Positions 7,035-26,536 are shown, counted from the stretch's first letter. The stretch is DNA of 64,000 bases from Candidatus Omnitrophota bacterium (GCA_024542975.1 JAMXCZ010000001.1:24141-88140); one strand, 5' to 3'. A program made the numbers and translations. The notes: generated by a model not told the origin, from the sequence alone.

Positions 7035-7699
7035 GCGGCACCCCTTTTATTAAGTAAGTCGATGGCATCCTTCGTTACAACCACATAATCGTGCGACAAA
7101 ACGTTAAGCGCCGTAACTTTATCGGACTCCGCGACTGTCATGCGCTTTATGTTTCGCGTAGCCCTGAAAAGTTTCTGGTCTATTTCTTTTACAACAAGAA
7201 GAACGGTATTTCTTAAATTCAACTTTTTAAAAAAATCGGCGACAATCTTGGTCTTTCCCTCTTCGGCGGGTACGCCGTCAATAGCCACGACCCGCCCGCT
7301 CTTTAATTTGGCGTTTATACTCGATACAAAAGCACTTCGCTTCATCTTTTTCGGTATGCTGTATCTAAAATCCCTGGGCTTCGGCCCAAAGACTATTCCC
7401 CCGCCCCGCCAGATCGGATTTCTTATGGAAGAGACCCTCGCCCTGCCGGTTCCTTTTTGTCTCCATGGTTTTTTTCCGCCACCCCTTACCTCGCTTCGGG
7501 TTTTTGTGCTGGCAGTGCCCCTTCTCTGATTTGCCCTGTACATCGTGAGGGACTGATAAAGAAGCGACTTGTTGACCCGACCGCTGAAAACGTCCTTATT
7601 TAACTCAAGCGTTCCGGCATTTTTGCCGTTCGAGTCAAACACGGGTATTTTATTAACCTGCGAATTACTTTTTGTTTTCATCTGTCTTCTGCCCGGCAT
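7031..7699 (-). CDS. rplD: 50S ribosomal protein L4
   Basis: 222 aa: …YRANQRRGTASTKTRSEVRGGGKKPWRQKGTGRAR…, L4 family. The start may be the internal M at 7681. Confidence 0.93.
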   Translation of the reverse strand: MPGRRQMKTKSNSQVNKIPVFDSNGKNAGTLELNKDVFSGRVNKSLLYQSLTMYRANQRRGTASTKTRSEVRGGGKKPWRQKGTGRARVSSIRNPIWRGGGIVFGPKPRDFRYSIPKKMKRSAFVSSINAKLKSGRVVAIDGVPAEEGKTKIVADFFKKLNLRNTVLLVVKEIDQKLFRATRNIKRMTVAESDKVTALNVLSHDYVVVTKDAIDLLNKRGAA

Positions 7700-8354
7700 C
7701 CGGGGCAGCCTCTTTTTCTCTTCGGGCGGGCTTCTTTTTGGCTTGCCGCACCAGGAGAACGCTCTCCCTATGTCCCGGAACAGCGCCTTTTACCACTAAA
7801 AGATTATCCTCTTCTACTATCTTTACCACTTTCAGGTTTTGCACCGTAATCTTTGCTGCGCCCATGTGCCCCGGCATGGTTTTTCCTTTATGCACTCTGG
7901 AAGGATAAGAGCTTGCGCCTATAGATCCCACCCGGCGATGAAACATCGAACCGTGCCCGCTCTCTCCGCCTCTCCAATTCCATCTTTTCATACCCCCCTG
8001 AAAGCCCTTTCCTATGCTTTTGCCCGTTATATCTACGTAATCACCGGCTTTGAATATGTTGACCATCACCTTATCGCCAGTTTTGCAGGAAGCATCGGAT
8101 TCAAGCCGTATTTCTTTAAGTGTCCTTTTTGGGCTAATTTTTAACTTGTCAAACCATTTCTTTTCCGGCATTTTTACCTTGGAGGCCTTCTTATCACCGT
8201 AGCCCAAAAGAACAGCGGAATATCCCGACGTATCCTTCGACCTTGTCCCAAGAACATAACAGGGTCCGGCCTCGATGAGGGTAACGGGAACAACGCGCCC
8301 ATCTTCGTCAAAAATATTCGTCATCCCTATTTTTTTTCCGAGTATTCCGGTCAT
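7665..8354 (-). CDS. rplC: 50S ribosomal protein L3 (Lys-rich C-terminal tail)
   Basis: MTGILGKKIGMTNIFDEDGRVVPVTLIEAGPCYV…, L3 signature. C-terminal …KKKPARREKEAAPDAGQKTDENKK. Confidence 0.95.
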   Translation of the reverse strand: MTGILGKKIGMTNIFDEDGRVVPVTLIEAGPCYVLGTRSKDTSGYSAVLLGYGDKKASKVKMPEKKWFDKLKISPKRTLKEIRLESDASCKTGDKVMVNIFKAGDYVDITGKSIGKGFQGGMKRWNWRGGESGHGSMFHRRVGSIGASSYPSRVHKGKTMPGHMGAAKITVQNLKVVKIVEEDNLLVVKGAVPGHRESVLLVRQAKKKPARREKEAAPDAGQKTDENKK

Positions 8355-8370
8355 ATAATTCTCTCTGTTG

Positions 8371-8465
8371 CGCTGTCATTCCCGCTTCCGCGGGAATCCA
8401 TATTCTACATCTCGGGATCCCCGCTTCCGCGGGGATAAATTTCGCCCTATGATATAAGGCGAAAT
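8371..8465. promoter_or_regulatory. Intergenic rpsJ-rplC structured element: two tandem near-identical hairpins (attcccgc-ttcc-gcgggaat and atccccgc-ttcc-gcggggat) plus a 10-bp hairpin (aaatttcgcc…ggcgaaattt)
   Basis: Read directly from the sequence. The two 8-bp stems differ by one compensatory pair (t/a to c/g). Confidence 0.4.
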
Positions 8466-8801
8466 TTACTTTATTTCCACATTGACTCCGGCCGGCAAGT
8501 CGAGCCGCCTTAAGGAATCAATAGTTTTAGCAGTCGGGCTTATTATCTCGAGAAGTCGCTTGTGCGTCTTTATTTGAAACTGCTCACGTGACTTTTTATC
8601 GATATGAGGCGACCTTAAAACCGTAAAAATTTCCCTTTTTGTAGGAAGAGGCACCGGCCCTGCAACAACCGAGCCTGTTTTTTTTACCGTTTGAACGATT
8701 TCCTCACAGGCCAAGTCTAAAATCCTATGGTCGTAGGCCATAAGCTTTATCCGTATCCTTACCGACTTATCCTGTTTTACTTTTAATTGCTTTGCTGTCA
8801 T
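8466..8801 (-). CDS. rpsJ: 30S ribosomal protein S10
   Basis: …[70 protein letters not shown]…, S10 family. Confidence 0.95.
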
Positions 8802-8804
8802 CAG

Positions 8805-10001
8805 TTATTCGCTAATCTCCGTTACCACACCGGCTCCTACGGTGTGCCCGCCTTCGCGTATGGCGAAGCGCAGGCCTTTTTCCATTGCTATGGGCTCTAT
8901 GAGGACTATATCCATCGTTACGTTGTCGCCGGGCATCACCATTTCAACGTCTTTGGGCAGCGTAACGCTTCCGGTTACGTCGGTGGTTCTGAAGTAGAAC
9001 TGCGGCCTGTAGCCGTTAAAGAAGGGTGTGTGGCGGCCTCCCTCTTCTTTCGTAAGGATGTAGGCCTCTCCCTTGCATTTTGTGTGGGGGGTTATGGTGC
9101 CGGGTTTAGCGAGCACCTGGCCTCGCATGAGGTCCTTCTTCTCTACGCCTCTAAGGAGGACACCAATGTTATCGCCTGCCTGGCCGTGGTCGAGTATCTT
9201 TCGGAACATTTCAACGCCTGTTACTACGCTCTTCTTGGTGGGTTTAAGGCCTACGAGCTCTATCTCTTCGCCTGTTTTCACCTGGCCGCGTTCTACCCGG
9301 CCTGTGCCTACGGTGCCTCTTCCGGTTATGCTGAATACATCTTCTATCGGCATGAGGAAGGGCTTATCTATGTCTCTCTTGGGTGTGGGAATAAAGTCGT
9401 CTACGGCTTTCATCAGTTCAAATATGCATTTTACGGCCTCTGCGTCATCGGGAGAGCGCATGGCTTTGAGAGCGCTTCCTTTTACAACCGGCGTCTTATC
9501 TCCCGGGAACTTATATTTTGTCAGAAGCTCTCTTACTTCGAGTTCTACGAGGTCTAAGAGCTCTTTGTCATCTACGAGGTCTATCTTATTGAGGAAGACT
9601 ACGATTGCGGGAACGTTTACCTGGCGGGCTAAGAGTATGTGCTCCCTTGTCTGGGGCATGGGGCCGTCTGCGGCTGATACTACGAGTATGGCGCCGTCCA
9701 TCTGGGCTGCGCCGGTTATCATGTTTTTGATGTAGTCGGCGTGGCCGGGGCAGTCTATGTGGGCGTAATGCCGCTTTTCGGTCTCGTATTCAACGTGCGC
9801 TACTGCGATGGTAAGGATCTTGTTTTTGTCCCTTACCAATCCGCCTTTTGCGATTTCCGCATAGCTTTTGGCCTGAGCCTGGCCTTTTGTTGCAAGGACA
9901 GTGGTTATAGCGCTTGTGAGACAGGTCTTGCCGTGGTCAATATGTCCAATGGTGCCTACATTCACATGAGGTTTTGTGCGTTCAAACTTTTGCTTTGCCA
10001 T
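8805..10001 (-). CDS. tuf: Elongation factor Tu (copy 1, end of str operon)
   Basis: 398 aa with GHIDHGKT and DCPGHADY GTPase motifs. Full-length EF-Tu. Strong SD (aggagg) upstream. Confidence 0.98.
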
Positions 10002-12679: not shown

Positions 12680-13054
12680 CTACTTCTTCAACATTTTCGC
12701 CCCATACTTGGAGCGCGATTTTTTCCTGTCCTGAACGCCTGAAGTATCCAGTGTGCCCCTCACAATGTGATATCTTACACCGGGCAGGTCCTTCACCCTG
12801 CCTCCCCTTATGGTAACGATCGAGTGCTCCTGAAGGTTGTGCCCTACGCCGGGTATATATCCCGTAACCTCGATGCCGTTTGTAAGCCTGATCCTTGCGA
12901 CCTTACGCAGCGCTGAATTCGGTTTCTTGGGCGTTTGAGTCTTTACTTGCAGGCACACACCCCGCTTCTGCGGGCACTGCTCAAGCGCTCGCGATTTTGT
13001 TTTTCTCTTAAACCGTTCTCTTCCCTGCCTTACAAGTTGGTTTATGGTCGGCAT
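12680..13054 (-). CDS. rpsL: 30S ribosomal protein S12
   Basis: [51 protein letters not shown]…, S12 family. Confidence 0.97.
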
Positions 13055-24198: not shown

Positions 24199-25401
24199 GT
24201 TATTCGCTAATCTCCGTTACCACACCGGCTCCTACGGTGTGCCCGCCTTCGCGTATGGCGAAGCGCAGGCCTTTTTCCATTGCTATGGGCTCTATGAGGA
24301 CTATATCCATCGTTACGTTGTCGCCGGGCATCACCATTTCAACGTCTTTGGGCAGCGTAACGCTTCCGGTTACGTCGGTGGTTCTGAAGTAGAACTGCGG
24401 CCTGTAGCCGTTAAAGAAGGGTGTGTGGCGGCCTCCCTCTTCTTTCGTAAGGATGTAGGCCTCTCCCTTGCATTTTGTGTGGGGGGTTATGGTGCCGGGT
24501 TTAGCGAGCACCTGGCCTCGCATGAGGTCCTTCTTCTCTACGCCTCTAAGGAGGACACCAATGTTATCGCCTGCCTGGCCGTGGTCGAGTATCTTTCGGA
24601 ACATTTCAACGCCTGTTACTACGCTCTTCTTGGTGGGTTTAAGGCCTACGAGCTCTATCTCTTCGCCTGTTTTCACCTGGCCGCGTTCTACCCGGCCTGT
24701 GCCTACGGTGCCTCTTCCGGTTATGCTGAATACATCTTCTATCGGCATGAGGAAGGGCTTATCTATGTCTCTCTTGGGTGTGGGAATAAAGTCGTCTACG
24801 GCTTTCATCAGTTCAAATATGCATTTTACGGCCTCTGCGTCATCGGGAGAGCGCATGGCTTTGAGAGCGCTTCCTTTTACAACCGGCGTCTTATCTCCCG
24901 GGAACTTATATTTTGTCAGAAGCTCTCTTACTTCGAGTTCTACGAGGTCTAAGAGCTCTTTGTCATCTACGAGGTCTATCTTATTGAGGAAGACTACGAT
25001 TGCGGGAACGTTTACCTGGCGGGCTAAGAGTATGTGCTCCCTTGTCTGGGGCATGGGGCCGTCTGCGGCTGATACTACGAGTATGGCGCCGTCCATCTGG
25101 GCTGCGCCGGTTATCATGTTTTTGATGTAGTCGGCGTGGCCGGGGCAGTCTATGTGGGCGTAATGCCGCTTTTCGGTCTCGTATTCAACGTGCGCTACTG
25201 CGATGGTAAGGATCTTGTTTTTGTCCCTTACCAATCCGCCTTTTGCGATTTCCGCATAGCTTTTGGCCTGAGCCTGGCCTTTTGTTGCAAGGACAGTGGT
25301 TATAGCGCTTGTGAGACAGGTCTTGCCGTGGTCAATATGTCCAATGGTGCCTACATTCACATGAGGTTTTGTGCGTTCAAACTTTTGCTTTGCCATTGTT
25401 T
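24199..25401. repeat. About 1.2-kb duplicate covering the tuf CDS plus SD region; the other copy is at 8804-10006
   Basis: The two tuf ORFs give identical 398-aa translations. Flanks checked by eye: identity starts at the stop codon and ends at the first mismatch just past the SD (g/a in ggccct/agccct). Confidence 0.9.
24200..25396 (-). CDS. tuf: Elongation factor Tu (copy 2, tufB-like)
   Basis: 398-aa translation identical to copy 1. Sits in the conserved tRNA-Thr / tuf / (rpmG) / tRNA-Trp / secE / nusG context. Confidence 0.98.
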
Positions 25402-25430: not shown

Positions 25431-26105
25431 TCATGACTTACCGCTTACAGCAGAGCCCATGATCGGCTTCGAACCGATGACCTCATCCTTACCATGGATG
25501 TGCTCTACCAACTGAGCTACATGGGCATATTCTCTCGCCCAATCTTTGATTATGCCTAAAAGTTTCGTATTGTGTACGTATATTGTAATCGTACCGAATT
25601 CCGAATGCCTCTTTACGCTTCCGCCGTTTCGGTTTTTCAAAATTGTCGTTTTTGTAAATTGGGTTATCGCGAGGCCTAGAAATTTTGCCCAGTACCCCTT
25701 CGCCTTTTTACGCGAAATATCCGGGTACACGATCAAAGACATTTTTATCTTATCGTTTTCCACTCCGCAGACAACTTTTAAAAATTTAACAAAAATTTTC
25801 ACGAGCGCGGGATTGGAATTGGAAAAACGCACTGAGTTTTTATTTTTTGTATTTCCTTCTGTGAGATAAAGCCCAAGCGCCATCGCCTTCAGATGGTCTT
25901 CTTCGGGTGTAAGATCTGACAGGATATCGAAGGGGTCACCGCTTCGGTTATTCTTGATGTAGGAAGCCTCTTTGTGGCTACGTATGGTGATCTTATTTAA
26001 AGACAGTACTCCGCGTACTTTTCTCGTCGAAATGCCATACATGGAGGCCACTTCACTCACTGAATTTCCGCTTCTGTAACTCCTAATGATTTCACCGGTT
26101 TCCAT
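25431..26105 (-). CDS. Hypothetical protein with N-terminal helix-turn-helix and a LAGLIDADG-like motif (possible homing-endonuclease-like); reading frame runs through tRNA-Thr
   Basis: ORF track 224 aa. HTH: EIIRSYRSGNSVSEVASMYGISTRKVRGVL. LAGLIDADG-like: AMALGLYLTEGNTKNKNSVRFSNSNPALVKIFVKFLK. The last 31 codons (25431-25526) are the antisense of tRNA-Thr with no in-frame stop before 25431, so the real C-terminus is uncertain. Confidence 0.45.
   Translation of the reverse strand: METGEIIRSYRSGNSVSEVASMYGISTRKVRGVLSLNKITIRSHKEASYIKNNRSGDPFDILSDLTPEEDHLKAMALGLYLTEGNTKNKNSVRFSNSNPALVKIFVKFLKVVCGVENDKIKMSLIVYPDISRKKAKGYWAKFLGLAITQFTKTTILKNRNGGSVKRHSEFGTITIYVHNTKLLGIIKDWAREYAHVAQLVEHIHGKDEVIGSKPIMGSAVSGKS
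25454..25526 (-). tRNA. thrT: tRNA-Thr (anticodon GGT)
   Basis: Reverse complement is GCCCATGTAGCTCAGTTGGTAGAGCACATCCATGGTAAGGATGAGGTCATCGGTTCGAAGCCGATCATGGGCT. Anticodon loop AUGGUAA. Directly upstream of tuf as in thrT-tufB. Confidence 0.85.
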
Positions 26106-26182: not shown

Positions 26183-26221
26183 CCTTTTTTTAACTTTTTT
26201 TAGCTTTTTTATCATAGCTGT

Positions 26222-26351
26222 CCAAATTAGCTACCGTGTCATTCCTGTGAAGCTTGTCCCTGCGAAAGCAGGGACAAGCTTCACAGGAATGACAGAGAAA
26301 ACGGACTTTTGGCACAGTCTGTTCGCGGGAATGGCACGGTAGCAAATTTGG
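26222..26351. repeat. Nested inverted repeat: perfect 26-bp stem with GAAA tetraloop (26238-26293) flanked by 17-bp outer IR arms (26222-26238 and 26335-26351, 1 mismatch)
   Basis: Read directly: gtcattcctgtgaagcttgtccctgc-gaaa-gcagggacaagcttcacaggaatgac. Outer arms are ccaaattagctaccgtg and cacggtagcaaatttgg. Confidence 0.6.
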
Positions 26352-26398
26352 ACACGAGTGAAAAAGTACATGCAATTTTTAGCCGAACAGTTTACCTT

Positions 26399-26536
26399 CA
26401 TAGACGCGAGCGTGAAAACCTCTGCCGCGTTGAGGGCTTTATTGTATATCCTGACATCATCCATTGCGCCGCTGAAATAATATCCTCCCGCCTTTCCTAT
26501 GCTGAAAGGGGTGGTCATTCTATTTAACAAATCCAC
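26399..26536 (-). pseudogene. Remnant of a LamG/laminin-G-like (concanavalin-type) domain C-terminus
   Basis: Minus-strand ORF fragment …MTTPFSIGKAGGYYFSGAMDDVRIYNKALNAAEVFTLAS carries the characteristic LamG terminal motif (F.G.iDeVRIYNrALsaaEi). No upstream body; a stop lies immediately 5'. Confidence 0.35.

Follow-up and report, generated by a model that had tools for sequence, protein, structure and literature searches.

The two tandem hairpins in the spacer between rpsJ and rplC of this Omnitrophota genome are best explained as a degenerate, inward-facing pair of Ssn-related (dRS3/NTS/SRM) hairpin repeats and not as a conserved regulatory RNA of ribosomal proteins, a reading to which we assign a probability of about 0.8. 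The new element of this result is that the pair is an Omnitrophota copy of an already known repeat family. Members of the family are DNA-level repeats, i.e., short G+C-rich palindromes with oriented flanks (GTC on the 5' side, C-Y-R-G on the 3' side) that form a hairpin in single-stranded DNA (PMC11893778). In the studied cases, a single-domain GIY-YIG nuclease of ~95 aa (Ssn) binds the hairpin and cuts a few nucleotides upstream, and hairpins of this kind typically flank the Ssn gene on both sides, in the manner of a small mobile element (PMC11893778). This assignment removes a false lead: the compensated base pair that distinguishes the two hairpins resembled a new riboswitch-like element of ribosomal proteins, and is an ordinary polymorphism within a selfish or domesticated family of DNA repeats. 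It also means that Ssn-type (dRS3/NTS-like) hairpins extend to Omnitrophota and can occupy an essential, highly expressed operon.

The rpsJ-rplC spacer and its hairpins

The window, i.e., the whole stretch of 64,000 nt (64 kb) that was analysed, contains a run of minus-strand genes that comprises rpsL, rpsG, fusA, tuf, rpsJ, rplC, rplD and others. The GC skew of the window tracks gene orientation, with the contributions of replication and transcription not separated. The genes and elements around the spacer, in the order of transcription, are as follows:

8805-10001, minus strand: tuf
8466-8801, minus strand: rpsJ (S10), the upstream gene, 3 nt after tuf; Pfam Ribosomal_S10 on the identical gene of L083, an independent assembly of the same organism
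8355-8465, minus-strand operon: rpsJ-rplC spacer, 111 nt
8436-8468, minus strand: hairpin A, 15-nt arms (8436-8450 and 8454-8468), 93% complementary
8413-8439, minus strand: hairpin B with flanks, ttt-ATCCCCGC-GGAA-GCGGGGAT-CCCG, the inverted, degenerate partner unit
8417-8436: hairpin B, ATCCCCGC/TTCC/GCGGGGAT
8398-8416, unstranded: A+T-rich segment between palindromes C and B, 19 nt, CCATATTCTACATCTCGGG
8374-8401, plus strand: hairpin C with flanks, an NTS/SRM-like unit, T-GTC-ATTCCCGC-TTCC-GCGGGAAT-CCAT
8378-8397: hairpin C, ATTCCCGC/TTCC/GCGGGAAT
8355-8374, minus strand: rplC leader/ribosome-binding stretch, agcgcaACAGAGAGaattat-ATG, unpaired in the centroid fold
7665-8354, minus strand: rplC (L3), the downstream gene; L3 protein MCQ9206303.1

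Hairpins B and C lie exactly where the original prediction had placed them, each with a perfect 8-bp stem and the same 4-nt loop, and the compensated change from T-A to C-G that it described is real; it affects stem pair 3 and is the sole difference between the two hairpins. Their starts are 39 nt apart. As the operon is on the minus strand, the order of the hairpins in the mRNA is A, B, C, and the loops of B and C read GGAA there. The third hairpin, A, is also present, with arms longer than the 10 bp originally described. It extends over the rpsJ stop codon (8466-8468), and its pairing is better on the mRNA strand, where a G.U pair takes the place of a C.A mismatch on the plus strand. Neither the window nor 211 loci gave a second copy of hairpin A, with the exception of L083, the same organism. 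Hairpin A is a separate stem-loop outside the repeat family, is not accounted for by the repeat model, and may act at the RNA level.

The predicted RNA fold of the spacer has an energy of -49.6 kcal/mol (z = -5.6), and the folds of each hairpin as single-stranded DNA have z values of -2.8 to -6.3, with stability predicted on both strands. There are 13 perfect hairpins with stems of at least 8 bp in the whole 64-kb window, and B and C are two of them. Using the 16-mer core with up to three mismatches, we found four matches in the window compared to 0.88 expected, and none of 100 shuffles reached four; the two remaining matches fall in coding sequence, one of them, at 12960, within rpsL. The spacer of L083 is identical; thus, the window spacer is not an assembly artefact.

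Relationship to Ssn-related repeats

The core of hairpin C (8378-8397) fits exactly the pattern ATTCCC-N8-GGGAAT of the Neisseria repeat dRS3. Approximately half of the dRS3 copies sit in a 28-nt oriented repeat, the Neisseria Transformation Sequence (NTS), CGTCATTCCCGCGMAVGCGGGAATCYRG (PMC11893778, Nat Commun 2025). The NTS is bound and cut solely as single-stranded DNA, and is not cut as double-stranded DNA, as RNA or as the reverse strand; cleavage is by the 94-aa nuclease SsnA, which consists of a single GIY-YIG domain (PMC11893778). Cleavage is governed by the three bases upstream of the palindrome, the C directly after the palindrome matters most for binding, and the identity of the loop is dispensable for cleavage (PMC11893778). 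Across phyla, ssn genes are flanked by Ssn-related motifs (SRM), and the authors of that study themselves liken the NTS to REP elements (PMC11893778).

Read on the plus strand, the hairpin C unit TGTCATTCCCGCTTCCGCGGGAATCCAT matches 23 of the 28 NTS positions, including both determinants, namely GTC at 8375-8377 for cleavage and C at 8398 for binding. The five mismatches fall at position 1, at three positions of the loop and at the final base, the flank CCAT (8398-8401) ending in T and not in G, as is the case in 14 of 121 family copies among the matches listed. Hairpin B, read on the minus strand, has kept the C on the 3' side (CCCG, a downstream flank found in 4 of 121 among the matches listed) and carries TTT instead of GTC on the 5' side, i.e., it has a part of the flank signature. 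The published search rules, an NTS with at most one mismatch or the SRM regular expression HGTCWYN(0-2)YYVSBRHN(0-5)WNVSBRGN(0-2)RNCYNB (PMC11893778), do not recover the window copy, which has five mismatches to the NTS; the strict SRM expression has no match in the window. The failure of these strict patterns is due to the loop, and the SRM expression with relaxed loop positions matches 8374-8401. On the GTC strand, the loop of hairpin C is TTCC, compared to GAAA (24 units), GAAG (11), GGAA (4) and others in the family. A TTCC-type loop was found in none of 58 other units, and the combination of flank and loop seen in the window occurs in 0 of 121 among the matches listed. By their loops, B and C are direct repeats; by their flanks, they are an inverted pair.

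The search for further copies of the hairpin that the original prediction had proposed gave none in the window, and at least 120 stretches in public metagenome contigs of 34-74% G+C that contain the exact 20-mer ATYCCCGCGGAAGCGGGRAT. Conservation extends beyond the searched 20-mer, and the flanks are oriented: among the matches listed, GTC lies directly upstream in 104 of 121, C is at position +1 downstream in 113 of 121, and CCA follows the stem in ~105 of 121, with G as the next base in 93. The paired architecture is present in the family as well, an inverted partner hairpin (YTGG-stem-loop-stem-GAS) lying within 80 nt in 33 of 121 of the matches listed, with 10-35 nt between the hairpins of a pair among these matches; the corresponding layout of the window is GTC[C]CCA-13 nt-GGG[B]. 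The metagenome loci listed have 1-2 copies each. An additional test for intergenic location, based on whether a copy is inside a long open frame, was dropped since it is unreliable on high-G+C contigs.

The base pair that differs between B and C covaries across the family: it is T-A in 104, C-G in 15 and mismatched in 3 of 122 listed copies (Fisher p = 3e-16), and the ATCCCC...GGGGAT variant, as in hairpin B, is found with GTC/CCAG flanks in 15 listed metagenome copies. The loci that contain the seed have 75 further GTC-hairpin-CY units with other stems, compared to 9 in the reversed-sequence control, and these units represent 25 different perfectly complementary stems. The 25 complementary stems and the covarying pair show that the hairpin structure is selected across the repeat family. 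The original claim that covariation indicates selection for the hairpin therefore holds for the family and does not carry over to a local function, because the T-A/C-G pair is a standing polymorphism of the family and provides no evidence for such a function. Moreover, the sequence of B and C and their flanks are conserved in unrelated organisms and contexts, which a local mRNA function cannot explain.

Association of the hairpin with GIY-YIG genes is observed outside the window. In three loci (L163, L087 and L143), the hairpin is 25-35 nt away from a gene for a GIY-YIG protein of 90-96 aa (PF01541, E from 1e-11 to 1e-17), and the layout of L163, hairpin - GIY-YIG gene - inverted hairpin, is the same as the NTS-ssnA-NTS arrangement of PMC11893778. 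No GIY-YIG gene was found in the 64-kb window by tblastn with an approximate consensus query; the same query recovered the true GIY-YIG genes in the three loci, where they were confirmed by Pfam. Proteins similar to Ssn are extremely abundant and strongly conserved: the number of matches at E < 1e-15 exceeds 7,800. The named proteins among the best 120 of these >7,800 matches belong to Nitrospirota and Chloroflexi, and no Omnitrophota-named protein is among these best 120. Ssn-like GIY-YIG proteins of ~96 aa (P0129-P0248) are 75-88% identical across Nitrospirota- and Chloroflexi-named contigs, and most of their genes lie on very short contigs of 0.5-2 kb, a pattern to be expected of a gene that is repeated and moves horizontally.

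Altogether, hairpin C and the NTS/SRM have in common an identical 8-bp stem (ATTCCCGC/GCGGGAAT), the GTC 5' flank and the C-C-A 3' flank, and the window pair also resembles NTS/SRM in its arrangement as inverted units and in the wide taxonomic spread of such units. The differences concern the loop (GMAV in the NTS/SRM versus TTCC in the window, i.e., flipped relative to the flanks), the partner B, which is without GTC, the host, since Omnitrophota are unmentioned in the main text of PMC11893778, and the position inside an essential ribosomal-protein operon, unlike that of the NTS/SRM. A further point of comparison is the neisserial intergenic mosaic elements (NIME), in which RS elements of 19-214 bp have been described (PMC1797815). 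The two palindromes of the window with their 19-nt filler of lower G+C resemble a minimal dRS3-RS-dRS3 unit, and the site is likewise variable between close relatives. However, hairpin B (ATCCCC...GGGGAT) is off the dRS3 pattern, the window has a single unit and no array, and NIMEs have been described as Neisseria-specific (PMC1797815).

Spacer turnover and competing readings

In 79 other Omnitrophota species genomes, the rpsJ-rplC spacer is 0-138 nt long (median 31) and unrelated in sequence; in the three closest species, with rplC proteins 67%, 63% and 56% identical, it has 2, 11 and 1 nt. Spacers of 20 nt or less occur in 34 of the 79 species, so that structure in this gap is not a phylum-wide requirement. 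The S10 regions of other Omnitrophota, 393 kb in all, gave no NTS-like hairpin. A spacer that is absent or unrelated in relatives is the outcome that the original prediction had itself named as speaking against it.

Closer relatives, with rplC DNA identity of 89-91%, were collected via a 90% protein cluster. Eight of them (L081 and L204-L210) have a 42-44-nt spacer with a small unrelated hairpin. In L211, the spacer has 125 nt and is filled by a different palindrome, CGTCATTGCGAGG...CCTCGCAATGACG (L211 430-540; fold -48 kcal/mol), and L082 (1-25) begins inside a palindrome of this type. The rplC genes of L211 and L081 are 97.5% identical and their spacers are unalignable, L081 being without the palindrome; both presence/absence and allele replacement at the spacer are therefore seen among close relatives. 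The palindrome of L211 stops 25 nt before the rplC start, and the ...GGGAATGAC of the window stops 23 nt before it; just the last ~20 nt before the rplC start (ACAGAGAG...) are common to the window and L211/L082. Compared to the 91% relative, the window spacer is alignable over about the last 10 nt only, and a clean insertion boundary can therefore not be drawn. The GTCATTGCGAGG element of L211 has a GTC...GAC frame, and units of the L211 type (GTCATTGCGAG) co-occur with NTS-like units in metagenome loci.

The rpsJ-rplC gap of the phylum is thus characterized by fast turnover and by repeated filling with hairpins. Among the 36 Omnitrophota spacers of at least 40 nt, the fold has z < -2 in 21 and z < -3 in 11, their sequences being unrelated. 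Unrelated strong hairpins recur in this single gap across L001-L080, and a subclade of five (L016, L034, L044, L050 and L067) has a common hairpin (..ACATAAGTTATGGAGC..) in the first ~50 nt after the rpsJ stop. For these five sequences, RNAalifold gives 16 pairs; in 8 of these, both positions vary while the pairing is preserved, and the subclade hairpin is a candidate for a genuine RNA element. The recurrent hairpins of the gap, including that of the subclade, might bear on the balance of EF-Tu and S10 versus the remaining ribosomal proteins.

Two observations concern the neighbouring tuf genes. The window has two of them (8805-10001 and 24200-25396), which are 100% identical over all 1197 nt, and the identity extends no further than 1-5 nt beyond the coding sequence; this probably explains the breaks immediately upstream of rpsJ in many public contigs of relatives. 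The gap between tuf and rpsJ has 3 nt in the window (8802-8804) compared to 103 nt in the close relative L204 (9523-9625), where it is rich in palindromes (GCTGTAAGC...GCTTACAG, TAAGCTTTAAGC...), suggesting that more than one gap of the operon is unstable in the genus.

An RNA-level element, with the three hairpins acting as an attenuator of the L4/S10 type, as an RNase III/E site, or as a block to 3' exonucleases that raises tuf-rpsJ over rplC and the genes downstream, is an unlikely explanation of B and C. The strong transcript fold, the GGAA loops (GNRA-type) on the mRNA, the open ribosome-binding stretch of rplC, and the location of hairpin A at the stop codon with better pairing on the mRNA strand would all fit such an element, as would the frequency of structured spacers in Omnitrophota and the 8 compensated pairs of the subclade hairpin. 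It should be noted that hairpin A, the structured spacers and the subclade hairpin concern the site more than the B/C repeat; the structured spacers and the subclade hairpin suggest that a hairpin at this spot may be useful and that the repeat may be co-opted, and a secondary benefit at the RNA level could be protection of the 3' end of the tuf-rpsJ transcripts. Conversely, the structure is not conserved in the nearest relatives, many species have hardly any spacer, and B and C with their flanks are conserved in unrelated organisms and contexts. Rfam at gathering thresholds gave six tRNAs only for the whole window, and at E up to 10 gave chance-level matches only for 8250-8600 (FtrB, 20 bits versus 66 needed). 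Both strands of 8250-8900 have no terminator-like site, hairpin A has no U-tract, and this interval has no sigma-70-like promoter consensus. An intrinsic terminator was rejected because there is no G+C-rich stem with a direct U-tract in 8250-8900, and an autoregulatory leader or attenuator was rejected because there is no Rfam match and the spacers are unrelated in the 79 species and 8 close relatives. Thus, of the candidates originally put forward, the two at the RNA level, i.e., the L4-type attenuator and the RNase processing site, are contradicted by relatives that have no spacer or an unrelated one, and are not supported by Rfam or by the scan for a terminator or promoter consensus. The L4-bound leader of the E. 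coli S10 operon, which combines transcription attenuation with translational control, is similar in being a structured RNA in the S10 cluster; however, it precedes rpsJ and has been conserved in relatives, whereas the structure in the window lies after rpsJ and is neither conserved nor accompanied by an Rfam match or a terminator.

The remaining candidate of the original prediction, a REP-like element, came closest of the three and was essentially right, in that B and C are members of a family of dispersed hairpin repeats (dRS3/NTS/SRM). REPs that are associated with RAYT carry a GTAG-type 5' tetranucleotide, and the RAYT gene is flanked by REPs. A classical REP/BIME maintained by a RAYT (an IS200/IS605-like tyrosine transposase) is nevertheless highly improbable: the conserved flank is GTC/CCAG and not of the GTAG type, and the genes beside the copies encode GIY-YIG proteins and not transposase-like ones, although the window does have a short extragenic palindrome as an inverted pair in an intergenic gap and the analogy is made in PMC11893778. 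The REP/BIME of Enterobacteria and Pseudomonas are likewise short extragenic palindromes, often in inverted pairs, which are transcribed in operons and can stabilise the upstream mRNA; their consensus and flank signature are different, and the enzyme of the present family is a GIY-YIG nuclease, not a Y1 transposase. Two further readings are barely credible. Two 20-bp palindromes that are nearly identical and 39 bp apart just upstream of rplC could be double-stranded operators for a dimeric regulator of an internal rplC promoter, but a symmetric operator needs no compensated changes, of which the family has many, no sigma-70-like promoter is present, and the same sequence occurs in the metagenome stretches (at least 120) in unrelated contexts while being absent in relatives. 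A hairpin that arose by chance or by local duplication and belongs to no family would agree with the presence of one pair only in the window, with the abundance of G+C-rich GNRA-capped hairpins, and with some exact 20-mer matches expected by convergence; this reading is refuted by the conservation of the flanks (GTC in 104 and C in 113 of 121 among the matches listed), which, together with the linked GIY-YIG genes, convergence of generic hairpins cannot produce. A CRISPR array was rejected, since the window shows two copies separated by 19 nt, compared to at least three direct repeats with spacers of ~30 nt or more.

If B and C are an Ssn-related pair, as we favour, their arrival between rpsJ and rplC in this Omnitrophota lineage would be recent, either by transposition-like copying or by recombination with another copy. 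The operon has few non-coding sites, of which this gap is one, and for this reason the pair would be retained or tolerated here. Such tolerance is probable, given that the ribosome-binding stretch of rplC is unpaired in the centroid fold. Transcription of the pair into two GGAA-capped RNA hairpins would be a by-product that at most stabilises or punctuates the tuf-rpsJ message. Should the genome encode Ssn, hairpin C on the plus (template) strand would be a potential site of binding and cleavage, and hairpin B would be at most a binding site. The flipped loop may have resulted from a strand-switch inversion within the palindrome or from conversion between two copies. With the loop of C flipped and B devoid of the cleavage determinant, the site may be a decaying copy.

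A more far-reaching combination of these elements is tentative and rather doubtful. Under this combination, the rpsJ-rplC gap would be a swap site for Ssn-type hairpin repeats in the genus, the repeats would have been recruited as RNA punctuation between the abundant tuf-rpsJ message and the remainder of the ribosomal-protein operon, and the flipped loop of hairpin C would be the footprint of hairpin extrusion and strand switching in vivo. The swap-site part is based on the ATTCCCGC pair of the window and the GTCATTGCGAGG...CCTCGCAATGAC element of L211/L082, which end 23-25 nt before the rplC start, and the punctuation part on the strong hairpins of unrelated sequence that fill this gap again and again in the phylum.

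A long-stem palindrome elsewhere in the window

The repeat units in the 64 kb comprise the pair described above and one possibly related palindrome:

26237-26294, unstranded: long-stem palindrome with perfect 27-bp arms, GTCATTCCTG...GAAA...CAGGAATGAC, in the element 26208-26365

This palindrome is intergenic and is nested in a 44-nt, 80% inverted repeat whose right arm contains GCGGGAATG. With its ends and the GAAA loop, it reads GTCATTCC.../...GGAATGAC, which can also be written GTCATTCCTGTGAAGCTTGTCCCTGC-gaaa-...GGAATGAC. The RNA fold of 26208-26365 has an energy of -97 kcal/mol (z = -12). The element has the 9-mer GGAATGACA in common with hairpin C (3 matches versus 0.36 expected) and, like hairpin C, has a C-rich stem with a GNRA-type cap. 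It might belong to the same repeat superfamily as a long-stem form, the resemblance in sequence being suggestive only.

Two predicted reading frames lie near this palindrome. The ORF at 26231-26536 (minus strand) matches only the last 35 residues of Laminin_G_3 (Pfam E = 9e-8), indicating a truncated gene remnant beside the nested palindrome; this adjoining remnant suggests a rearrangement at the palindrome. The ORF at 25431-26105 (minus strand, 224 aa) has a weak match to HTH_28 below the Pfam cut-off, and its 3' end overlaps the tRNA gene at 25454-25526; probably, the gene is in fact shorter than this ORF, or part of the ORF is spurious.
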